Assembly: GCA_021738245.1 (NCBI GenBank)
Contig: JAIPCJ010000001.1
Location: forward strand, 11,504 to 75,503
DNA length: 64,000 nucleotides
DNA from: Methylotenera sp.
GTDB lineage: Bacteria; Pseudomonadota; Gammaproteobacteria; Burkholderiales; Burkholderiaceae_C
Reading direction: 5' to 3'
Within the stretch, counting starts at the first letter, position 1. Each line of letters starts with the position of its first letter. Both the position numbers and the translations under genes were made by a program. The notes beneath the pieces were generated by a model that saw only the letters and a program-made list of their open reading frames with translations, ran no database searches and was not told where the DNA came from. Positions 19,261 to 30,525 of this stretch are shown here, in pieces.

Positions 19261-21546
19261 ATGAAGTTCACTGACGGACAGTGGATGCTTCAACCGGGCG
19301 TCGCCGCGCATTACGCGGCCGAGGCCTACGAGGTGGAAGCCCACGCCGACCGACTGGTCGTGCTCGCCACGACCCGACCCATCAAGCACCGCGGCGACAC
19401 GCTGCAGGGCCCCACGCTCACGGTCACGCTCAGCTCGCCGCTGCCGGGCGTCATCCGGGTGAGCGTGGCCCACTACACCGCATCCAGCGCGCCACGCCTG
19501 CACATCCCCATGGTGGGCGCGACGCAGGCGCCGGTGCAGATCACCGAGACCGACACCCACGCCACGCTGACCTCCGGCGCGATCTCGGTGGATGTGAAGA
19601 AGGGCGAGGGCTGGAGCCTGACCTTCCGCGAGGGCAGTCGCATCCTGACCAAGAGCGACTGGCGCGGCCTGGGCTTCATCCAGTGGGGGCCCAAGGGCAA
19701 CCATGTGCACGAGCAGCTGAGCCTGGCCGTGGGCGAGAACGTCTATGGCCTGGGCGAGCGCTTCACCGCCTGGGTGAAGAACGGCCAGGTGGTGGAGAAC
19801 ACCAACAAGGACGGCGGCACGGCCTGCGAGCAGGCCTACAAGAACGTGCCTTTCTACCTGACCAACCGGGGCTACGGCGTGCTGGTGAACGAGGCCGGCC
19901 CGGTGTCCTTCGAGGTGGCCTCGGAGAAGGTCGCGCGTGTGCAGTTCAGCCGCGAGGGCGAGAGCCTGGACTACTGCGTGATTGCGGGTCCGACGCCGAA
20001 GGATGTCGTGTCCCGGTTGACAGCGCTGACAGGCCGCGCCCCGCTGCCGCCGGCCTGGAGCTTCGGCCTGTGGATGACGACCTCGTTCACCACGCAGTAC
20101 GACGAAGCCACCGCCACGCATTTCATCGACGAGATGGCGCGCCGCGAGCTGCCGTTGTCGGTCTTTCACTTCGACTGCTTCTGGATGCGCGAGTTCCAGT
20201 GGTGCGACTTCCAGTGGGACCCGCGCGGCTTCCCCGAGCCCGAGGCCATGCTCCAGCGCCTGCATGCCAAGGGCCTGAAGATCAGCCTCTGGATCAACCC
20301 CTACGTGGCGCAGAAGTCGCCCCTGTTCGCCGAGGGCGTGCGGGAGGGCTACTTCATCAAGCGCAAGGGCGGGCCGCAGGATGGCCTGACCTTCCAGACT
20401 GACCTCTGGCAGCCCGGCATGGCCATCGTCGACTTCACCAACCCGGCGGCCAAGGCCTGGTACCAGGGCCATCTGCGCCGCCTGCTGGCCACCGGTGCGG
20501 ACTGCTTCAAGACCGACTTCGGCGAGCGCATCCCGAGCGAGGGCGTGCAGTACTTCGACGGCTCCGACCCGGTCGAGATGCACAACCTCTATGCGCTGCA
20601 GTACAACGAAGCGGTCTTCGAGCTGCTGCAGGAGGTGCAGGGCCGCGACGCCATCGTGTTCGCGCGTTCCACCTATGCCTCGGGCCAGCGCTTCCCGGTG
20701 CACTGGGGCGGCGACTGCTGGAGCACCTTCGAGTCGATGGCCGAGAGCCTGCGCGGCGGCCTGTCGCTGACCAGCTGCGGCTTCGCCTTCTGGAGCCACG
20801 ACATCGGCGGCTTCGAGGGCAAGCCGCCGCCGGCCGTCTACAAGCGCTGGATCCAGTTCGGCCTGATGTCCTCGCACAGCCGACTGCATGGCAGCAGCAG
20901 CTACCGGGTGCCATGGCTGGTGGACGAGGAAAGCTGCGACGTGCTGCGCGTCTTCACCCGGCTCAAGCACCAGCTCATGCCCTACCTCTATGCCACTGCG
21001 CAGGAGGCCTCGCAGACCGGCGTGCCGATGATGCGGGCCATGGTGCTGGAACACCCGGACGACCCCGCCTGCGCGGCGCTGGACCGCCAGTACCAACTGG
21101 GCGGCAGCCTGCTGGTGGCGCCGGTGTTCACCGAGAGCGGTGAGGTCGATGTGTATCTGCCCGCAGGCACCTGGACGCATCTGCTGTCGGGCGAGAAGAA
21201 GGCGGGCGGGCGTTGGCATCGCGAGACGCATGGCTTCCTGTCCATGCCGCTGTATGCGGCGCCGGGCAGCGTCATCGCCTGGGGTGCGGAGACCGAGAAG
21301 CCCGACTACGACTACGTCCGCGGCACGGTGCTGCGCGTGTTCGAGCTGGCCGACGGGGCGAGCGCAGCCTTCACGGTGGTGGGCGTGGACGGCGCGGTGG
21401 CGGCGCGTGGCACGGTCAACCGCCGCGGCGCGGCCTACACCGCCGAGGTGGCCGAAGGCGCGCTGCACGACTGGGCCATCGAGGTCGACGGCCGCCGCAG
21501 CCCGGTGCTGGCCCGCGGTGCACGCCTGAACTGGACGCCGGCATGA
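19261..21546 (+). CDS. yicI: GH31 alpha-xylosidase
   Basis: MKFTDGQW start, YGLGERF, FHFDCFWM, FKTDFGERIP and WSHDIGGF motifs, typical of YicI. Confidence 0.95.
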   Translation: MKFTDGQWMLQPGVAAHYAAEAYEVEAHADRLVVLATTRPIKHRGDTLQGPTLTVTLSSPLPGVIRVSVAHYTASSAPRLHIPMVGATQAPVQITETDTHATLTSGAISVDVKKGEGWSLTFREGSRILTKSDWRGLGFIQWGPKGNHVHEQLSLAVGENVYGLGERFTAWVKNGQVVENTNKDGGTACEQAYKNVPFYLTNRGYGVLVNEAGPVSFEVASEKVARVQFSREGESLDYCVIAGPTPKDVVSRLTALTGRAPLPPAWSFGLWMTTSFTTQYDEATATHFIDEMARRELPLSVFHFDCFWMREFQWCDFQWDPRGFPEPEAMLQRLHAKGLKISLWINPYVAQKSPLFAEGVREGYFIKRKGGPQDGLTFQTDLWQPGMAIVDFTNPAAKAWYQGHLRRLLATGADCFKTDFGERIPSEGVQYFDGSDPVEMHNLYALQYNEAVFELLQEVQGRDAIVFARSTYASGQRFPVHWGGDCWSTFESMAESLRGGLSLTSCGFAFWSHDIGGFEGKPPPAVYKRWIQFGLMSSHSRLHGSSSYRVPWLVDEESCDVLRVFTRLKHQLMPYLYATAQEASQTGVPMMRAMVLEHPDDPACAALDRQYQLGGSLLVAPVFTESGEVDVYLPAGTWTHLLSGEKKAGGRWHRETHGFLSMPLYAAPGSVIAWGAETEKPDYDYVRGTVLRVFELADGASAAFTVVGVDGAVAARGTVNRRGAAYTAEVAEGALHDWAIEVDGRRSPVLARGARLNWTPA

Positions 21547-23252
21547 AGCGCGGCCTGCTGTGGCCGCTGCTGGTGGCGGGAGCCGGCGCGGCGTGGGCGG
21601 ACGCCGGCATCGCGGTCAACCAGGTGGGCTACCTGCCGGGCACGACCAAGGTGGCGGCGGCCCCAGCCGCCCCGGCCAGGAAGGCGGCCCGCTTCCAGGT
21701 GGTCGATGCCCGCAGCGGCCGCGTGGTGCTGGGCGGGCGCCTCGGCGCACCCGCGCTGTGGGCGCCTGCCGGCAGTGAGGTGCGGCTGATGGACTTCTCC
21801 GCGTTGACACGACCTGGCCAGTACCGGATCCGCGTGGCCGGCCTGCCGGACTCGCCCACCTTCACGGTCGCACCCGATGCCTATGCCGCGGTCAACGCCG
21901 CCGCGATCAAGGCCTTCTACTTCAACCGGGCCAGCACGCCGCTGCTGCCCGAGCATGCGGGCCGCTGGGCGCGCGCCGCGGGCCACCCCGACGATGTGGT
22001 GCGCGTGCATGCCTCGGCCGCGGGCCCCGGCCGGCCGGAAGGCACGGTCATCCGCGCGCCCAAGGGCTGGTATGACGCGGGTGACTACAACAAGTACATC
22101 GTCAACTCCGGCATCACGGTCTACACCCTGCTGGCGGCCTGGGAGCATTACCCGGAGCTGTTCAAGGCCCAGCGCCTGAACATTCCGGAGAGCGGCAACG
22201 ATCTGCCCGACCTGCTCGACGAGGTGCTGTGGAACCTCGAATGGATGCTCGACATGCAGGACCCGGCGGACGGCGGGGTCTACCACAAGCTCACCAACAA
22301 GGGCTTCGACGGCGTGGTGATGCCGGTCGATGCGCGGGGCGAGCGCTATGTGGTGCAGAAGTCGACCGCGGCGACGCTGGATTTCGCGGCCGTGATGGCG
22401 CAGGCCAGCCGCGTGTTCTCCGCCTTCGAGGCCCAGCGACCCGGGCTGTCGCAGCGCCTGCGCGACGCGGCCCGCCGGGCCTGGACCTGGGCGCAGCAGC
22501 ATCCCGCCGAGATCTATCGCCAGCCGCCGGACATCCGCACCGGCGGCTATGACGATGACCAGCTGGCCGACGAATTCGCCTGGGCCGGCACGGAACTCTG
22601 GCTGGCCACCGGCGACGCGAGCTACCGGCCCGACCTCGACGCGCTGCCGATCAGCACGCCCGGCTGGGCCGATGTGAAGGGCCTGCTGTGGGTAACCCTA
22701 GGCGCGCATCTCGACAAACTCAGGGAAAATGACAGCGTTGTCGTCAAAGCCCGCCTCATGACCTTCGCGCAGGAACAGCTCGCCCTCTGGCAGGCCTCGG
22801 CCTACCGGCTCGGCGTGCGCCCGGAGGACTTCGGCTGGGGCAGCAACTCGGTGCTGCTCAACCGCGCGCTGATGCTGCTGCAGGCCTATCGCCTGGACCG
22901 GCAGCCTCGGCTGCTGGCCGCGGCGCAGGCGCTGTTCGACCATGTGCTCGGGCGCAACCCGCTCGGCCAGAGCTATGTCACCGGCTTCGGCGCCCACCCG
23001 CCGAGGCACCCGCACCACCGGCCCTCCGAGGCCGATGGCGTGGAGGCGCCGGTGCCGGGCTTCCTGGTCGGCGGCCCCAACCCGGGTCAGCAAGACCAGC
23101 AAGGCTGCCCGGTGCCCTATGCCTCCAAGCAGCCGGCGCTGTCCTACCTCGATCACTTCTGCAGTTATGCGAGCAACGAGGTGGCGATCAACTGGAATGC
23201 GCCGCTGGTCTATGTGTCGGCTGCGCTGCAGGCCCTGACCCCCGCGAGATGA
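21543..23252 (+). CDS. GH9 endoglucanase with N-terminal Ig-like domain, secreted
   Basis: NQVGYLP, GWYDAGDYNKY, HHRPS and YASNEVAINWNA motifs; ATGA overlap with yicI; signal peptide. Confidence 0.93.
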   Translation: MKRGLLWPLLVAGAGAAWADAGIAVNQVGYLPGTTKVAAAPAAPARKAARFQVVDARSGRVVLGGRLGAPALWAPAGSEVRLMDFSALTRPGQYRIRVAGLPDSPTFTVAPDAYAAVNAAAIKAFYFNRASTPLLPEHAGRWARAAGHPDDVVRVHASAAGPGRPEGTVIRAPKGWYDAGDYNKYIVNSGITVYTLLAAWEHYPELFKAQRLNIPESGNDLPDLLDEVLWNLEWMLDMQDPADGGVYHKLTNKGFDGVVMPVDARGERYVVQKSTAATLDFAAVMAQASRVFSAFEAQRPGLSQRLRDAARRAWTWAQQHPAEIYRQPPDIRTGGYDDDQLADEFAWAGTELWLATGDASYRPDLDALPISTPGWADVKGLLWVTLGAHLDKLRENDSVVVKARLMTFAQEQLALWQASAYRLGVRPEDFGWGSNSVLLNRALMLLQAYRLDRQPRLLAAAQALFDHVLGRNPLGQSYVTGFGAHPPRHPHHRPSEADGVEAPVPGFLVGGPNPGQQDQQGCPVPYASKQPALSYLDHFCSYASNEVAINWNAPLVYVSAALQALTPAR

Positions 23253-23418
23253 GGCCCCTCGTCCGACGCGTACGTGGGCCGGTTCCCCGAGGGGATGGCC
23301 CTGCTTGCGGCTTCGGGCCGCGAGCCCATGGCCCGCGCGGGCCGGCTCGGGCGCGGCGCGGCGCCTGCCCCGCAACGCCGAGATTCACCCGGCATCCCTA
23401 GAGAAAAACGGAGACATC

Positions 23419-24735
23419 ATGACCTCGCCCCACCGCCACCCGCTCGTCTGGGTGCCCTCGCTCTACCTGGCCATGGGCCTGCCCAACGTGATGGTGGGGG
23501 TGGTCGCGGCCATCATCTACAAGAACCTCGGCGTCGCCAACGAGGACATCGCGCTCTACACCTCGCAGATGTACCTGCCCTGGGTGCTCAAGCCGCTGTG
23601 GGCGCCGCTGCTGGAGGCCTACCGCAGCAAGCGCTTCTGGGTCATCAGCATGGAGTTCACGATGGCCGCCGGCCTGGCCCTGGTGGCCCTGTGCCTGCCG
23701 CTGGAGGGCTTCTTCAAGCTGTCGCTGGCCTTCTTCTGGCTCGTCGGCTTCGCCTCGGCCACGCAGGACACCTGCGCCGACGGTGTCTTCATGACCACCG
23801 TCAGCAAGACCGACCAGGCGCGCTACGCCGGCCTGCAGGGCATGTGCTGGAACATGGGCGCCGTCATCGCCTCGGGCCTGCTCGTGTCCCTGACCGGCTA
23901 TCTGCACAACCACCTGGGCCTGAGCTGGGTGCAGTGCTGGGTGATCGTCGTGTCCCTCGCGGCCGGCGCGATGGCCCTCTTCGGTGTGTACCACTTGCGC
24001 GTGCTGCCGCCGGGCGCGCCGTCGACCCTGAAGGGGCAGGGCCTGGGCGTGGGCCTTCGCGCCACGGCCGAGGCCTGGGTCACGCTGTTCCAGAAGCCGC
24101 AGATCTGGATGATGCTGGCGGTCATCTTCTTCTACCGCTTCGGCGAGGGCTTCATCGAGAAGTTCGGCCCGCTGTTCCTGCTCGATGGCCGCGAGGCCGG
24201 CGGCCTGGGCCTGGACAACGAGGCGCTCGGCCACATCAACGGCACGGTCGGCACGCTGACCTTCATCGCGGGCGCGTTTCTGGGCGGCTTCCTGGTCGCC
24301 AAGCGGACGCTGCCGCGCAGCTTCTTCCTGCTGGCCCTGGTGCTGAACATCCCGCACCTGACCTACTTCTACCTGGCGCAGTCCATGCCGACCGACACGA
24401 CGACCATCGCCGTGGTGGTGGCGCTGGAGAAGTTCGGCTTCGGCATGGGCTCGGTCGGCCACATGCTTTACATGATGCAGCAGATCGCGCCCGGGCCCTT
24501 CCGCATGGCGCACTACGCCATGGCCACCGGGGTCATGGCGCTCACGAAATGGAGCACCGGCAGCGTGAGCGGGCTGCTCTGGAACCTGGTTGACCATCAT
24601 TACGTGAGCTTCTTCGGCTGGGTGCTGGTGTTCTCCATCCCGCCGGTGGTGCTGGCCTGGCTGGCTCCCTTCCCGCACGACCACGCGGCAGCGCCCGAGG
24701 CCGCTGGCGAGCCGGCGATCGCGGGAGGCCACTGA
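23419..24735 (+). CDS. MFS transporter, AmpG-like
   Basis: PWVLKPLWAP, SATQD..DG and FYRFGEG motifs; about 12 TM segments; GGAGAC RBS. Confidence 0.85.
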   Translation: MTSPHRHPLVWVPSLYLAMGLPNVMVGVVAAIIYKNLGVANEDIALYTSQMYLPWVLKPLWAPLLEAYRSKRFWVISMEFTMAAGLALVALCLPLEGFFKLSLAFFWLVGFASATQDTCADGVFMTTVSKTDQARYAGLQGMCWNMGAVIASGLLVSLTGYLHNHLGLSWVQCWVIVVSLAAGAMALFGVYHLRVLPPGAPSTLKGQGLGVGLRATAEAWVTLFQKPQIWMMLAVIFFYRFGEGFIEKFGPLFLLDGREAGGLGLDNEALGHINGTVGTLTFIAGAFLGGFLVAKRTLPRSFFLLALVLNIPHLTYFYLAQSMPTDTTTIAVVVALEKFGFGMGSVGHMLYMMQQIAPGPFRMAHYAMATGVMALTKWSTGSVSGLLWNLVDHHYVSFFGWVLVFSIPPVVLAWLAPFPHDHAAAPEAAGEPAIAGGH

Positions 24736-25451
24736 TGAGCCTGCTGCTGAGCCTGGCCCTGGCCACGGCCGCGGCGCCGTCCTGCGCGCCTGATGCGCTG
24801 GGCACCGCCCGCACACTCACCCTGCCGCGGGCCGCAGCCGCCTGGGGCACGGCCCAGCACGCGCCGCTGCCGGGCCTCGCCCCCAAGGAAGTGGTGCTGA
24901 CCTTTGACGACGGCCCGCGTCCCGGGTCCACGCCGCAGGTGCTGAAGGCCCTGGCCGAGCAATGCGTGCAGGCGAGCTTCTTCATGAACGGCGAGCCCAT
25001 GGCCCGCCACCCCGAGCTGGCGCGCACGGTGCGCGACGCCGGTCACAGCGTAGGCATGCATGGCTATCGGCATGACAACTTCTCGCAGCTGCCCGCCGAA
25101 GACCAGGGCCGCGACCTCAAGGCCATGATCGCGACCTACGTCGAGGTGCTAGGCGAGGCGCCGGCCGCTTACCGATTCCCCTTCCTGGCCGAGTCGCCCA
25201 CGCTGATGAAGGCGCTCGACAAGCTCGGCATCACCGTCATGTCGGTGGACGCCGGCGCCGAGGACTGGTTGCCCGACCAGACGCCGCAGAGGCTGGCCGA
25301 CAAGCTCATGGGCCAGCTCGCGAAGCCGGGCGGCGGCATCATCCTGCTGCACGACGCGCAGGACCAGACAGCGCGCGCGCTGCCCTTCCTGCTCAAGACC
25401 CTGAAGGCGGGTGGCTACCGCGTGGTGCACCTGCGCTGGCAGGGGCCATGA
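24735..25451 (+). CDS. CE4 polysaccharide deacetylase, exported
   Basis: TFDDGP, HGYRH, YRFPF and IILLHD motifs; signal peptide; TGATG coupling to the MFS gene. Confidence 0.88.
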   Translation: MSLLLSLALATAAAPSCAPDALGTARTLTLPRAAAAWGTAQHAPLPGLAPKEVVLTFDDGPRPGSTPQVLKALAEQCVQASFFMNGEPMARHPELARTVRDAGHSVGMHGYRHDNFSQLPAEDQGRDLKAMIATYVEVLGEAPAAYRFPFLAESPTLMKALDKLGITVMSVDAGAEDWLPDQTPQRLADKLMGQLAKPGGGIILLHDAQDQTARALPFLLKTLKAGGYRVVHLRWQGP

Positions 25452-25488
25452 AGAAAAAGGGGTGAGGCCCCTTGCGAGACCTCACCCC
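25451..25488 (-). terminator. intrinsic terminator downstream of the EF-G paralogue
   Basis: Minus strand GGGGTGAGG-loop-CCTCACCCC followed by TTTTTCTT. Confidence 0.8.
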
Positions 25489-25501: not shown

Positions 25502-27517
25502 TCAGGCCGCCAGGGCCAGCCGCGCCGGCAGCTCGGCATGGTGGCTCAGCTGCATCGTGAACTGCGCCCGCCCCGCGCTCAGCGCGCGCAGCTGGCCGAT
25601 GTAGCCGAACATCTGCGCCAGCGGCACCTGGGCCGACACGACGACGGCGCTGCCGCGCACATCCTGCCCCTGCACCTGCCCGCGGCGGCGCAGCAGGTCG
25701 CCGATGACGTCGCCCAGCGCTTCGGCCGGCGTGACGACTTCCACCGCCATCACCGGCTCCAGCACCACGGGCGCTGCCTTCAGCACCGCCTCGCGCAGCG
25801 CGCTGGCCGCCGCCAGCTCGAAAGCCAGCGCCGACGAATCGCGCACGTGCGCGCTGCCGTCCACCAGCACCGCCTCGAAGTCCACCAGCGGGTGGCCCGC
25901 GAACGGGCCGGCCTGGGCCGCCTTGCGGATGCCGGCTTCCACCGCCGGGATGAACTCGCGCGGAATCGCGCCGCCCACCACGGTGCTGCTGAAGCGAACG
26001 CCGTCGCCGCGCGCCAGCGGTGCGATGCGCAGCGTCAGCTCAGCGAACTGGCCGGGGCCGCCGCTTTGCTTGCGATGCACATGCCGCACCTCGGCCGCCG
26101 CCGTGATGGTCTCGCGGTAAGCCACCTGCGGGCGGCCGACCGAGACCTCCACGCCGAAGCGTGAACGCAGCTTCTCCACGGCCACTTCCAGCTGCAGCTC
26201 ACCGAGGCCTGACAGCAGCGTCTGTCCGGTCTCGGCGTCCTGACGCAGGCGCAGCGACGGGTCCTCGCGCACGAGCACACCCAGCCCCTTGGCCAGGGCG
26301 GCGGCACCTGCCTGCTGGCGTGGCTCGATGGCCAGGTCGATGACCGGCTCGGGCACGGCGATGCTCTCCAGCACCGGCGCGTCGCGCGTGGCCGCCAGCG
26401 TGTGGCCGGTCAGCACGTCCTTCAGGCCCACGATGCCGGCAATGTCGCCCGCGACCAGCTGGTCGCGCTCGACCCGCCGGTCGGCATGGATCTCGTACAG
26501 CCGCGTCACGCGCTCGGCCTGGCCGGTGCTGGCGTTGAACACCGTGTCGCCGCGCCGCAGGCTGCCGCGGTAGACCCGCACGAACACCATCGTGCCGTGG
26601 TCATCCGCGCTCAGCTTGAACGCGAGGGCGGACAGCGGGCCGTCCGCGGCCACCGCGCCGGGGGCTTCGCCGGGCGCGGGCAGGTAGGCCACGACCGCAT
26701 CCAGCAGCGGCTCCACGCCGCGGTTGCGGAAGGCCGAACCCGCCAGCACCGGCACCAGCTCGCCTGCAATCGTGGCCGCGCGCAGGCCCGCCCGCAGGGC
26801 GTCCACCGAGGGGCTGTCGCCGCGCAGCCAGGCGTCCAGCAGGGCGTCGTCGCGCTCCACCACGGCTTCCACCAGGCGGGCGCGGGCCAGCTGAGCCGGG
26901 CCGATCAGTTCGGGCGGGATGCCGGTCACGCGCGGCGGCGCCTGGGCGTCGTCACGGTCCCATACCAGGGCCTGCTGCGAGAGCAGGTCCACCACGCCGC
27001 GGAAGTCGCCTTCCGCGCCAATCGGGAGCTGCAGCGGCAGCACATTCGCGCCCAGGCGCTCGCGCATCATCGCGACCACACGGTGGAAGTCCGCGCCGGT
27101 TCGGTCCAGCTTGTTGACGAAGGCGATGCGCGGCACGCGGTACTCGTCGGCCAGGCGCCAGTTGGTCTCGGTCTGCGGCTCCACGCCGGCCACGCCGTCG
27201 AACACGACCACGGCGCCGTCGAGCACGCGCAGCGAACGGCGCACCTCGATGTTGAAGTCGATGTGTCCGGGGGTGTCGATCAGGTTGATCTGCGTGCCCT
27301 GCCAGTGCACGGTGGTGGCCGCGCTGTGGATGGTGATGCCGCGCGCGCGTTCCTGCGGGTCGAAGTCCATCGTGGTGGCGCCGTCGTGGACTTCGCCGAT
27401 GCGGTGGTTTTCGCCGGTGTAGAACAGGATGCGTTCGGTGGTCGTGGTCTTGCCGGCGTCGACGTGGGCGATGACGCCGATGTTGCGCAGGTTGCGGAAG
27501 GTGATGTTCGAGTTCAT
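25502..27517 (-). CDS. fusA: elongation factor G paralogue (stand-alone, outside the str operon)
   Basis: [37 protein letters not shown] and EPVMAVEV motifs; 671 aa; no rpsL/rpsG/tuf neighbours. Confidence 0.93.
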
Positions 27518-27570
27518 GGTGATTCCTGATTCGGGGTTGGCGTGCCAGCCCCGGCGGAACCGCCATGGGG

Positions 27571-27678
27571 CTAGCGTGAGGTCAGGACGCCGAAGCGCGC
27601 ACGCGACAGGCACAGCCGAGCCGCGCTCCGGCGCTCGGGAATCGTGGCGATCAGCTTGTCGAAGGTGCGGTTGAACAT
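27571..27678 (-). CDS. 35-aa small ORF between the attenuator and fusA ([35 protein letters not shown])
   Basis: ATG 13 nt after the terminator U-tract; TAG 54 nt before the fusA ATG; function unknown. Confidence 0.45.
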
Positions 27679-27690
27679 GGTGGAACTCTG

Positions 27691-27729
27691 AAAACGAAAA
27701 ACCCCGGGAGGGACAGGCCTGCCGGGGTT
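27691..27729 (-). terminator. attenuator-type intrinsic terminator in the fusA leader
   Basis: Minus strand AACCCCGG-CAGGCCTGTCCCT-CCCGGGGTT followed by TTTCGTTTT. Confidence 0.8.
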
Positions 27730-27778
27730 GGTTGGGACCGGAAGGCGGTGGCGCCTTCCGAACACGGTCGAAGGGCGC

Positions 27779-27820
27779 TCAGGTGTTGAGGCGGGCTTGG
27801 ATCGTGTGGTTGAGCTTCAT
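27779..27820 (-). CDS. putative leader peptide MKLNHTIQARLNT
   Basis: 13-codon ORF immediately followed by mutually exclusive hairpins and a terminator upstream of fusA. Confidence 0.6.
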   Translation of the reverse strand: MKLNHTIQARLNT

Positions 27821-27872
27821 GATGGGCAAGATTGTGGGCTGAACGGCTATCTGGGGAAGGGGGCAGGGTCTT

Positions 27873-29414
27873 TCAAGCCCCCGCAGGCAGGGCGGCCAGC
27901 TGGCTCACGCTGGCCTGCCGGTACGGCGCGCACAGCTGCTCGACGTAGGCCTGGTGCCCGGGCAGCCCTGCCACGGTGCGCGCGACCCTGGTGTGGATGT
28001 CGCCCAGGAAGCGCGTGAGCTCGTCACGGCCCATGAGGTCGGCCACCGGGTGGTAGCGCGCGGGCGTGATGCCCTGGCCCATCATGACCTGCACCCAGGA
28101 GTTCTCGGCAAAGAGCTCGTCGCTCGGGCGGAACACCCGGGCCGTCTCGCGGAAGAGCTCGATGCGGTGGCGCAGCGAGGGCAGGATGTCCATCTCGCGC
28201 ACATGCGTCCACAGCGCCGAGTCGGTGCGTTCGTTCACGTGATAGTGCAGCACGATGAAGTCGCGGATGTGCTCCAGCTCACGCTTGCTCTGCGCATTGA
28301 ACTCGTCGACGTCGGCCTGCTGGATGCCGCCTGACGGGAAGGTTTGCATCAGCCGCACGGCCGCGCGCTGGATCAGGTGGATGCTGGTGGACTCCAGCGG
28401 CTCGACAAAGCCGCTGGCCAGGCCGACCGCGATGCAGTTGCGATGCCAGACCTTGTCGCGCTGACCCGGCAGGAACTTGATGACGCGAGGCTGCGTGAGC
28501 AGTTCGCCCTCGACGTTCTTCTTGAGCACCTCGGGCGCATCGGCGTCGCTCATCTCCTTGCTGCTGTAGACGAGGCCATTGCCCACGCGATGCTGCAGCG
28601 GGATGCGCCATTGCCAGCCAAAGGGGTGGGCGATGGAGCGGGTATAGGGCCAGGCCTCGCGCACCGAGGCCGTCTGCACCGCGACGGCGCGGTCGCAGGG
28701 CAGCCAGTACGACCAGTCTTCATAACCCACGCCCAGGGCCTCGCCCAGCAGCATGGAGCGAAAGCCCGTGCAGTCGATGAACAGGTCGCCATCGATGCGG
28801 CTGCCATCCTGCATCTGCAGCGCGGTGATGGGGCCGTCCCGCCCCTGCGGGCCGTCCATCAGCACGGCGCCGATCTTGCCTTCGATGCGCTTGACGCCAT
28901 GCGCCTCGCTCATCGCGCGCAGGTACTTGGCATAGCGGCCGGCGTCGAGGTGGTAGGCGTAGTTCAGGCCGCTGCGCGGCACATGGGCGAAGCGGTTGGC
29001 AAAGGCGGCCACCGTCTCGGGGTTGTAGTCGGTGTAGGTGCGCGCCAGGCCGTCGCGCCGGCCCTTGAGCCAGAAGTGCTGGAAACCGGCGCTCCAGTGG
29101 TCGTTGCCGGTGCTGCCGAAGGAGTGGAAATAGTCCTGGCCGATGTTCTTCCAGCCCTCGAAATTGATGCCGAGCTTGAAGGTGGCGTTGGTGGCCGCCA
29201 TGAACTCGGCCTCGTTGATGCCGAGCAGGTTGTGGAAGGTCAGCAGGGCGGGGATGGTCGCCTCGCCGACGCCCACGGTGCCGATCTCCTCGGACTCGAC
29301 CAGCTTGATGTCGAGCTGCTTGCCGAGCAGCTTGCTCATCAGGGCGGCCATCATCCAGCCGGCGGTGCCGCCGCCGGCAATGACGACGCGGTTGAAGGGC
29401 TTGGAAGTGTTCAT
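27873..29414 (-). CDS. tryptophan-halogenase-family flavin-dependent halogenase, copy 2
   Basis: GGGTAG, VGVGEATIP, ATFKLGI, WQWRIP and GFVEPLES motifs; ATGA overlap with the cupin gene. Confidence 0.92.
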   Translation of the reverse strand: MNTSKPFNRVVIAGGGTAGWMMAALMSKLLGKQLDIKLVESEEIGTVGVGEATIPALLTFHNLLGINEAEFMAATNATFKLGINFEGWKNIGQDYFHSFGSTGNDHWSAGFQHFWLKGRRDGLARTYTDYNPETVAAFANRFAHVPRSGLNYAYHLDAGRYAKYLRAMSEAHGVKRIEGKIGAVLMDGPQGRDGPITALQMQDGSRIDGDLFIDCTGFRSMLLGEALGVGYEDWSYWLPCDRAVAVQTASVREAWPYTRSIAHPFGWQWRIPLQHRVGNGLVYSSKEMSDADAPEVLKKNVEGELLTQPRVIKFLPGQRDKVWHRNCIAVGLASGFVEPLESTSIHLIQRAAVRLMQTFPSGGIQQADVDEFNAQSKRELEHIRDFIVLHYHVNERTDSALWTHVREMDILPSLRHRIELFRETARVFRPSDELFAENSWVQVMMGQGITPARYHPVADLMGRDELTRFLGDIHTRVARTVAGLPGHQAYVEQLCAPYRQASVSQLAALPAGA

Positions 29415-30424
29415 CGCTTGAGTTGGTTCAAGAGTTGGGTGCGGGCCTGGCGCGACAGCGTCTCGTCGATGGGCCCGAGCAGGCCGCGGGCGGTGGCGGG
29501 AATGTGGTCCCAGGGCTGCGGGTCGTCGTTGAAGATGAAGTGATCGAGGTGGTGGCGCCAGATGCGCTTTTCTTTCTCGGGCAGGTCGCGCAGGGTCATC
29601 AGCGCCAGGCGCAGCGTGCTCAGCGGCGAATCCACGTACTCGGGGGTCTGCCGCCACCAGGCGTTGATCAGCAGGTTGACCGGCGCCAGGCCCTCCACGT
29701 GGTGGAACCACATGCTCGGGATGAAGAGGGCATCCCCCGGGTCCAGCTCCACCACCTCGCCGGCGGCCAGCGCCTGCGCGAAGCGGGGGAAGCGGTTGAA
29801 GTCAGGCGCGGCGAAGTCCACCAGGCTGATGGGCTGGCCGGCGGGTGTCGGGTCGAGCGGCCCGACGTAGAGGTTCTTGATCTGCTCCGGCGGGAACACC
29901 GTGAAGCGCCGCCGGCCCGCCGCCACCACCGCGAGGTTGTCCGGCAGGTCGTAGTGCGCGGCGATGCGGGTGCGGTTGCCCAGCCACAGGCTGACGAGCG
30001 CGTCCCGCGCGCCCAGGCCCAGGCCGTTGGCCTCCATGAAGCCGGGCAGCACGGCCTCCACCGTGGTCGAGCCCACGTACAGCGCCGGTGGCTCGGCCAC
30101 CGGGGCCACACCGAGCAAGCCGGTGAGCACCTGGTCGAGGGTGGCGCTGTAGCGGTTGAAGTTGAAGCGGGTCAGGCCCTCGTCGGCGTAGAACACACGG
30201 CCGCGCTCCTGGGGTTCGAGCTGGAACAGGCCGACGTGCACGCCGTTGTACAGGCCCATCAGATAGCGGGCCAGGGCTTCGTCAGACTGGCGCGCCGCCT
30301 GCACCACCGGCCAGTGCGCGAAGCCGCCGCGCACCACGTAGGGCCGCTCGGCCTTCAGCAAATCATCGGGCAGCGCGTTCGGGTCGAACGGGCCGGGCCA
30401 GGCGGGGACCTCACGCAACGGCAT
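29411..30424 (-). CDS. cupin-like / JmjC-type Fe(II) oxygenase (Cupin_8)
   Basis: SLWLGN, AHYD (HxD), GDALFIPSMWFHHVE (distal His) and LLINAWW motifs. Start at MPLREV; an alternative GTG lies at 30451. Confidence 0.85.
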   Translation of the reverse strand: MPLREVPAWPGPFDPNALPDDLLKAERPYVVRGGFAHWPVVQAARQSDEALARYLMGLYNGVHVGLFQLEPQERGRVFYADEGLTRFNFNRYSATLDQVLTGLLGVAPVAEPPALYVGSTTVEAVLPGFMEANGLGLGARDALVSLWLGNRTRIAAHYDLPDNLAVVAAGRRRFTVFPPEQIKNLYVGPLDPTPAGQPISLVDFAAPDFNRFPRFAQALAAGEVVELDPGDALFIPSMWFHHVEGLAPVNLLINAWWRQTPEYVDSPLSTLRLALMTLRDLPEKEKRIWRHHLDHFIFNDDPQPWDHIPATARGLLGPIDETLSRQARTQLLNQLKR

Positions 30425-30447
30425 GCTGTTTCCAGGTCGGTGATTCG

Positions 30448-30525
30448 CCACAGAGGCACAGAGGCACAGAGAAACCGGCCCGTGTTCGCACCCGGGCCAT
30501 CGGTCTGTGCCTCTTTGTCTCTGGG
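30448..30525. repeat. CACAGAG-type palindromic repeat, copy 3 (degenerate)
   Basis: CCACAGAGGCACAGAGGCACAGAG ... TCTGTGCCTCTTTGTCTCTGGG between sapC and the cupin gene. Confidence 0.75.

Follow-up and report, generated by a model that had tools for sequence, protein, structure and literature searches.

Introduction

Ribosomes translating a short leader open reading frame (ORF) set the expression of the downstream genes in several well-known bacterial systems. In the trp, his, leu, thr and pheST attenuators of enterobacteria, overlapping alternative helices and an intrinsic terminator come directly after a short leader ORF, and the position of the ribosome picks the helices by kinetic, co-transcriptional folding, a principle that we also propose here. 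Leaders that respond to translation inhibitors likewise place a short leader peptide ahead of a gene acting on the ribosome, and they work by translational attenuation (ermC, ermB and cat) or by transcription attenuation (vmlR, lmo0919, msrD, tet(M), hflXr and bmrCD); stalling leads to antitermination or to exposure of the ribosome-binding site (RBS), and the sensor in the erm and cat type is a conserved nascent-peptide motif of about 10 residues. In secM-secA, rpmI-rplT and the MS2 coat-replicase pair, a long-range helix hides the downstream RBS, and one of its arms can be reached by a ribosome on the upstream ORF. Here we describe a control region related to these systems, which lies ahead of an accessory gene for elongation factor G (EF-G) in a 64,000-nucleotide (nt) stretch of DNA from Methylotenera sp. 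(contig JAIPCJ010000001.1, positions 11,504 to 75,503; this whole stretch is the window, and all coordinates below refer to it).

Second EF-G genes are common in bacteria, but, to our knowledge, little is known about how, or for what reason, they are turned on. Burkholderia multivorans selected on argyrin B reportedly up-regulates a drug-insensitive second EF-G, fusA2, a finding credited to Jones et al. in 2017. That case likewise concerns a betaproteobacterial spare EF-G that comes on when the main EF-G is compromised, which is the physiology that the leader described here would provide; we know of no leader mechanism described for fusA2.

The control region spans 27877-27515 on the minus strand, the roughly 360 bases that precede the EF-G paralogue, and we read it, with a probability of roughly 0.7, as a two-stage leader of this gene that is read by ribosomes. 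It differs from trp-type attenuators in that it has no run of codons for one amino acid, has five pairing segments and not four, and would be controlled by a ribosome masking a segment beyond the stop codon, where the classical one lies within the ORF; moreover, its first ORF is apparently leaderless, and the regulated gene encodes a translation factor and not a biosynthetic operon. Unlike the resistance-gene leaders, it has two leader ORFs in series, is found in a Gram-negative betaproteobacterial host, precedes an EF-G paralogue and has no known inducing drug. Sequestration of the RBS in a helix is common to the erm and cat type and to this leader, in which the pairing covaries. The arrest motif of SecM is C-terminal and next to the helix, whereas the conserved motif of the second leader peptide here is N-terminal, with 20-40 codons between it and the stop and a hairpin of its own behind it.

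Results

An accessory EF-G gene and its conserved leader

The gene under study is the following.

25502-27517, minus strand: EF-G paralogue gene, 671 amino acids, monocistronic

Its product is a full-length EF-G (834 bits with TIGR00484, cut-off 659), and the solved bacterial EF-Gs are all at about the same distance from it; among named relatives, Roseateles puraquae comes nearest, its paralogue being 97% identical. Orthologues at 83-90% identity were found in 17 genomes of the genus sample, and canonical fusA (about 50% identity) was also present in several, whereas seven genus members had the canonical copy only or no match. Because the relatives also carry this canonical fusA, the gene is, judging from sequence, an accessory EF-G paralogue and an extra copy, in agreement with the spare EF-G named in the original prediction, an annotation made from the letters of the window. 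The draft assembly to which the window belongs (92% complete, 243 contigs, 4.6 Mb) showed no canonical str-operon fusA, most likely owing to an assembly gap. In domain III, GELQLEV was found in 86/86 scorable paralogues, versus GELHLEI in 11/11 canonical EF-Gs of the same order; we take the His of GELHLEI to lie within the fusidic-acid pocket and to be a known resistance position in Staphylococcus aureus.

Alignment of the 480 nt upstream of 18 same-genus orthologues delimited a conserved block running from about 50 nt before the first leader ORF through the EF-G start, regardless of the upstream gene. A blastn search with the leader and a protein-guided search yielded approximately 80 further loci in other genera, in which an EF-G paralogue (63-73% identity) always followed 130-260 nt downstream of the leader. 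The deduplicated set comprised 98 distinct leaders, distributed over Roseateles/Pelomonas, Acidovorax, Variovorax, Rhizobacter, Aquabacterium, Ideonella, Hydrogenophaga, Methylibium and Chitinimonas; 73 of them entered the attenuator alignment, the first leader ORF was recognised in 59, and the spacing of its first two downstream segments was scorable in 58. The conservation of the ORF and the hairpins at orthologous loci that the original prediction had called for was thus found across this set. Weak blastn matches without EF-G (leaders L052, L054-L055 and L057-L064) were discarded as spurious, none having the motif of the second leader peptide.

The 356-nt leader folded with z = -3.5, beating all 100 dinucleotide shuffles, and its hairpin-terminator pattern occurred once in the 4.6-Mb assembly. 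In a class-wide pattern search of 401 genomes, the sole match was the window's own genome and none was found in the 400 others, of which only 2 came from the same family, so that this draw shows specificity and says little on range. The best matches of the window to Rfam 15 scored 16-17 bits against gathering scores of 36-50, and none was found in six orthologous loci; NCBIfam gave no match for the second leader peptide, whose homologues appear in sequence databases as unnamed or 'hypothetical protein' only. Full-text literature searches returned no description of the leader, of the motif or of attenuation of an EF-G paralogue, in line with the original prediction, whose author knew of no such account for a betaproteobacterial fusA paralogue.

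A probable transcription attenuator behind the first leader peptide

The first stage consists of an upstream ORF (uORF1) and five overlapping segments, A to E.

27820-27779, minus strand: uORF1, MKLNHTIQARLNT, 13 codons and TGA
27768-27778, minus strand: segment A, GCGCCCTTCGA (segment 1 of the original prediction, GCGCCCTTCG, 27778-27769); pairs with B
27751-27761, minus strand: segment B, TCGGAAGGCGC (segment 2 of the original prediction, CGGAAGGCGC, 27760-27751); pairs with A or C
27738-27747, minus strand: segment C, CGCCTTCCGG, 3' arm of the 9-bp hairpin; alternative partner D (putative antiterminator)
27717-27729, minus strand: segment D, AACCCCGGCAGGC, 5' arm of the terminator and partner of C
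27691-27707, minus strand: segment E, CCGGGGTT, and T-tract, TTTTTCGTTTT; with D, intrinsic terminator 1

The 13-codon uORF predicted on the minus strand was present, with its ATG at 27820 and its TGA ending at 27779. Among the 59 leaders, its length was 13 codons in 45, 14 in 13 and 16 in one, always with an ATG start, and the peptides followed the loose pattern M-K-[FLI]-x-x-x-[IV]-[KQE]-A-x-[FIL]-[AN]-[TA]. No codon run was found in uORF1 or in the second leader ORF (sORF2), making amino-acid sensing unlikely, as had been argued from the absence of a run of one amino acid.

Segment positions were strictly tied to the uORF1 stop codon: in 58/58 leaders, the core of A began 4-7 nt and B 18-21 nt downstream of it. 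During termination, a ribosome shields some 9-10 nt past the stop codon; a ribosome at the uORF1 stop would therefore mask A and not B. The A:B helix was 96% paired across the leaders, a value reached by 0/500 shuffles, and showed compensatory double changes at three pairs, with nine UA-to-CG cells at one of them. In the alternative structure, B and C form a perfect 9-bp hairpin with arms at 27760-27752 and 27747-27739 and the loop CCAC. The terminator has an outer stem of 8 bp (AACCCCGG, 27729-27722, with CCGGGGTT, 27707-27700) plus inner pairs, followed by the T-tract to 27691. The RNAalifold consensus of the 73 leaders consisted of this B:C hairpin and the D:E terminator. Both pairings proposed for segment 2, with segment 1 and in the 9-bp hairpin, were thus recovered, as was the GC stem with U-tract at 27729-27691 as an intrinsic terminator, and the conserved uORF with A at 4-7 nt from its stop bears out the layout of a ribosome-coupled transcription attenuator dedicated to the EF-G paralogue.

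How the switch reaches the terminator had not been evident to the original prediction. A candidate was found in the pairing of C with D (GCCTTCCGG, 27746-27738, with CCGGCAGGC, 27725-27717), which matches at 8/9 positions in the window and was 86% paired across the 73 leaders, specifically in one register. At the position of the central U.C mismatch, two leaders have G-C and two Chitinimonas leaders have A-U, and CCCCGGCAGGC in D is almost invariant across genera while the terminator loop and inner stem vary. A C:D antiterminator pairing is plausible. With five segments and not four, read-through and not super-attenuation is predicted when the ribosome is late or absent. A sixth segment within uORF1 that would pair with A, restoring the trp-like rule that no translation means termination, was rejected (-5.9 kcal/mol, compared with -5.4 kcal/mol for shuffles).

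A hairpin with a T-tract lay no more than 100 nt upstream of the sORF2 start in 82/98 leaders, mostly at 17-63 nt. We considered whether promoter, uORF1 and terminator form a separate short unit, such as a small RNA (sRNA), a small-protein gene or the terminator of the upstream gene, with the EF-G promoter located at 27691-27678. A promoter-like element and a strong terminator do enclose about 130 nt, terminated attenuator products can act as sRNAs, and in some 20 of the 98 leaders the module is missing while sORF2 and EF-G are kept. However, the module stays with the EF-G paralogue across genera and varied upstream genes, occurs once in the genome and, in most leaders, leaves just 17-63 nt between the T-tract and the sORF2 ATG; in addition, the overlapping A:B, B:C, C:D and D:E complementarities would be useless for a plain terminator. 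We thus consider a separate unit very unlikely. Two simpler readings were discarded, namely that the terminator is the end of the upstream halogenase gene and that the hairpin is a repetitive extragenic palindromic (REP)-like repeat, as the block follows EF-G with any upstream gene and is unique in the genome.

A conserved peptide in the second leader ORF

Transcripts reading through terminator 1 would carry sORF2.

27678-27571, minus strand: sORF2, second leader peptide, 35 codons and TAG
27640-27669, minus strand: codons of the conserved sORF2 motif, 10 residues
27588-27633, minus strand: hairpin H1 inside sORF2, arms 27633-27622 and 27599-27588

All the elements listed in the original prediction were present, yet the anatomy it gave was not complete, in that this 35-codon ORF, which it had treated separately, belongs to the leader as its second stage. 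sORF2 was found in 77/80 loci of the protein-guided search and in 98 unique leaders in all, and by this comparison it is the most conserved element of the leader. Its motif, R-T-[Y/F]-D-K-L-I-A-[T/V]-I, was invariant in the 98 leaders except for the Y/F alternation and four substitutions, while its codons varied synonymously (CGC/CGT 77/21, CTG/TTG/CTC 63/31/4, ATC/ATT 86/12 and GCC/GCG 90/8), indicating that selection acts on the sORF2 peptide. The last Ile codon of the motif was ATT in 97/98 leaders, whereas the earlier Ile was ATC in 86/98. In the same-genus alignment, the frame survived in-frame indels of 6 and 9 nt and a TAG-to-TGA change. Outside the motif, which falls within codons 2-13 and starts 1-7 residues from the N-terminus, the peptide varied freely in sequence and length, with totals of 31-52 codons.

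The stop codon of sORF2 was TAG in 75/98 leaders and never TAA; of the three stop codons, TAG is probably the one that high-GC bacteria use least. In the window, this stop (27573-27571) sits in a conserved GCTAGCC context that forms a helix arm.

The GC-rich hairpin H1 began 0-7 nt after the last Ile codon of the motif in every leader, and its arms covaried (for example, CCGGAG:CTCCGG versus CCAAAG:CTTTGG), with a matched energy of -19.9 kcal/mol compared with -14.8 kcal/mol for foreign arms. The end of the motif, I-A-T-I or I-A-V-I, in our view resembles the stalling motifs IFVI of ErmCL and IAVV of ErmAL1. It is possible, and we suggest it tentatively, that RT[YF]DKLIATI is a new arrest or pause peptide and that, with H1 at the mRNA entry channel, sORF2 would sense translocation capacity, responding to EF-G activity or to drugs trapping the factor. 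An erm-like relay, with a freed 3' arm of H1 capturing the sequence that would mask the EF-G RBS, was not supported, as matched pairs were no better than foreign ones; in this the leader differs from the erm type with its 1:2 / 2:3 / 3:4 relay.

The strong amino-acid-level selection on ten residues, the constant adjacency of sORF2 to the EF-G paralogue and the calling of sORF2 as a gene in some annotations ('hypothetical protein') would also suit a functional micro-protein, for instance one that acts with or modulates the EF-G paralogue or the ribosome, with the RBS helix merely coupling its synthesis. However, only about 10 residues are conserved, whereas the other 20-40 vary freely and look like translated GC-rich RNA helices; the position of the motif shifts, from 1 to 7 residues from the N-terminus; and the same peptide precedes two RNA output platforms, which is typical of regulatory leaders. 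A micro-protein is therefore an unlikely explanation, and we continue with sORF2 as a regulatory leader peptide.

A covarying helix predicted to mask the EF-G ribosome-binding site

The sORF2 stop codon is followed by a sequence complementary to the translation start region of EF-G (anti-RBS).

27544-27575, minus strand: hairpin GCTAGCCCC / GGGGCTGGC; the 5' arm includes the sORF2 stop and the loop bears the anti-RBS
27556-27567, minus strand: anti-RBS, CATGGCGGTTCC, complementary to the EF-G RBS and start region
27515-27527, minus strand: EF-G RBS, spacer and start codon, AGGAATCACCATG, partner of the anti-RBS

In the window, the duplex of the anti-RBS (27567-27556) with the RBS (27527-27515) has a predicted energy of -16.1 kcal/mol. 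The anti-RBS began 4-9 nt after the sORF2 stop in 77/93 leaders; from this position, a ribosome at the stop would open the EF-G RBS, an unmasking like that of secM-secA or rpmI-rplT. The leaders contained 32 distinct RBS 9-mers, each with a matching partner (mean duplex 10.5 bp), as in GGCGAATC:GATTCGCC, GGTGAATC:GATTCACC and GCGGATC:GATCCGY, and including swapped pairs such as GTGATTCC:GGAATCAC and GCGATTCTT:AAGAATCGC. Two to five Watson-Crick pair types occurred at each of the RBS positions -9 to -2, the pairs being defined by energy optimisation. The mean anti-RBS:RBS energy was -14.1 kcal/mol with the leader's own partner, -9.4 kcal/mol with a foreign partner and -7.3 kcal/mol with a control region. 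In the minimum-free-energy fold of the window's leader, the RBS pairs instead with ATTCCC of sORF2, giving two competing anti-RBS sequences. With 8-14 bp and about -14 kcal/mol, the RBS helix is unlikely to be an RNA thermometer.

A minority of lineages (leaders L023, L051 and L065, and Chitinimonas) had no RBS helix, and instead carried a hairpin with a T-tract immediately before the EF-G start. In this terminator-type subgroup (L023, L051, L065, L138, L143 and L144), the paralogues start with ME[TND]RKL, are 63-66% identical to that of the window and are preceded by the same RTYDKLIA[TV]I peptide; the Chitinimonas peptide has IAVI for IATI. The sORF2 peptide is thus, as far as the aligned leaders tell, wired to two outputs, an RBS helix or a terminator. 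Analysis by hand of the antiterminator logic of L023, L051, L065 and L138 gave no consistent picture.

Promoter candidates upstream of uORF1

Two sets of promoter-like elements precede uORF1.

27871-27877, minus strand: candidate -35 element, CTTGAAA; overlaps the stop codon of the upstream halogenase gene
27849-27856, minus strand: candidate sigma-32-type -10 element, CCCCAGAT, 14 nt after CTTGAAA; the pair lies 28 nt upstream of uORF1
27831-27836, minus strand: -10-like hexamer, CACAAT, ending 10 nt before the uORF1 ATG

CTTGAAA and CCCCAGAT presumably resemble the sigma-32 heat-shock promoter consensus, and we treat them as a candidate promoter. The arrangement CTTGAAA-N12-14-CCC[CG]A.AT was found 27-29 nt upstream of the uORF1 ATG in 14/27 Roseateles-type leaders, some of them with a different upstream gene. 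The spacing in the window is CTTGAAA-N14-CCCCAGAT, and a Rhizobacter leader has the variant CTTGACA-N13-CCCCATTT.

A hexamer [ACG]A[ACT]AAT ended 6-10 nt ahead of the uORF1 ATG in 55/59 leaders, and a Shine-Dalgarno-like 4-mer preceded uORF1 in only 8/59. Based on these two features, uORF1 probably lacks a 5' leader or has only a very short one. Reading by eye also placed TTGCnn 17 nt upstream of the -10-like hexamer in several other genera.

Genomic neighbourhood

The EF-G gene and its leader are bordered by the following elements.

25459-25488, minus strand: strong intrinsic terminator closing the EF-G unit, a 13-bp GC-rich hairpin; T-runs were detected on the minus strand
27873-29711, minus strand: tryptophan (Trp)-halogenase-family gene, the upstream neighbour

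Since the EF-G gene ends in this 13-bp terminator and faces a convergent gene, it is monocistronic; the hairpin, placed between the convergent EF-G and polysaccharide-deacetylase genes, is probably a bidirectional terminator. The flanks of EF-G (21213-25451 on the plus strand and 27873-30451 on the minus strand) hold polysaccharide-utilisation genes and no translation genes, and include a GH9 cellulase, the polysaccharide deacetylase, the Trp-halogenase-family gene and a cupin. A third EF-G-like gene is present in the same genome (contig C124, 5749-7755); it is 39% identical to the paralogue and scores 362 bits, below the EF-G cut-off. The paralogue proteins have a mean of 1.15 cysteines.

Discussion

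The anatomy of this leader, its conservation, the selection on its peptide and the covariation of A:B, of H1 and of anti-RBS:RBS are shown by the data. We infer that ribosomes are the sensor and that they respond to a defect in elongation, translocation or recycling, or to a drug causing one; whether slow translation indeed switches the EF-G paralogue on stands, in our estimate, at roughly even odds.

In the mechanism that we propose, the first stage would be transcription attenuation, on a transcript that would start at, or a few bases before, the uORF1 AUG. After uORF1, the five overlapping segments could pair as A:B, B:C, C:D and D:E, with D:E and the U-tract forming the intrinsic terminator. 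A ribosome that keeps pace with RNA polymerase and sits at the uORF1 stop would cover A, so that B:C and D:E can form and the polymerase stops at about 27691. With a late ribosome, one stalled earlier in uORF1 or none at all, A:B would form first, C:D would follow, and the polymerase would read through without a terminator.

The second stage would be translational control on the read-through transcript bearing sORF2. Here, the anti-RBS would pair with the EF-G RBS and start codon, and a ribosome reaching or lingering at the sORF2 stop would melt this helix and permit EF-G translation. The motif and H1 might act as a gate or pause site that sets the number and timing of the ribosomes reaching that stop; our best guess is a programmed pause whose duration would depend on translocation, with the base of H1 arriving at the mRNA entry site as the last codons of the motif are decoded. 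Slower termination and recycling, which also depend on EF-G, would prolong the unmasking of the RBS. Together with uORF1 as a speed sensor, sORF2 would complete a feedback loop that turns on an EF-G with a variant fusidic-acid pocket (GELQLEV) when the canonical factor fails. GELQLEV and the sigma-32-like promoter fit a spare factor induced by stress or drugs, and neither proves it.

Several observations weigh against this two-stage reading. At the promoter, a consensus scan of the window called no sigma-70 promoter, and the window's own -35 element for the near-leaderless promoter is poor. uORF1 and terminator 1 are missing from approximately 20 of the 98 leaders. The columns of the C:D pairing are near-invariant and, because they hardly vary, covariation neither supports nor refutes it. 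In 71/73 leaders, the terminating fold is favoured over the read-through fold by about 9 kcal/mol, meaning that the decision must be kinetic, as in trp, and read-through is assumed to depend on kinetic trapping of A:B. In the second stage, no covariation of H1 with the anti-RBS or with the RBS was seen, matched and mismatched energies being equal. In a nested equilibrium model, RBS accessibility was 0.40 in the free leader, 0.40 with a ribosome stalled at Ile and 0.44 with a ribosome at the stop, a result that is uninformative, as this footprint model leaves out pseudoknots and folding kinetics.

The thermodynamic preference for termination also bears on a rival reading, in which the hairpins answer to a trans-acting factor (such as a metabolite, a small RNA or an RNA-binding protein) in place of ribosome position and the mini-ORFs are incidental. 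Termination being favoured, something must stabilise the alternative fold, and B, C and D show extreme nucleotide conservation of the kind seen in leaders that bind a protein or a ligand. However, the length of uORF1, its ATG and the 4-7 nt distance from its stop to A are all conserved, and sORF2 is selected at the peptide level, not as RNA alone. Moreover, no Rfam family matched, and the leader consists of simple overlapping helices with no conserved multi-helix core. A trans-acting factor is therefore distinctly unlikely, and we retain the ribosome-read, two-stage leader as our reading of the region.

New in leader-peptide control are the two stages, the apparently leaderless first ORF and the new conserved nascent-peptide motif. 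The leader constitutes a concrete and widely conserved cis-regulatory device: about 100 distinct loci carry it, spread over Chitinimonas and at least a dozen named genera of Burkholderiales. As a candidate nascent-peptide sensor, sORF2 would join a rare class of which each member is informative on the ribosome exit tunnel, and its association with two outputs, RBS masking or termination, would make it the leader-peptide counterpart of a riboswitch aptamer with different expression platforms. Should impaired translocation or an antibiotic targeting EF-G turn out to be the signal, the leader would represent inducible target-replacement resistance in environmental Gram-negative bacteria, and would provide a ready-made reporter for such compounds.

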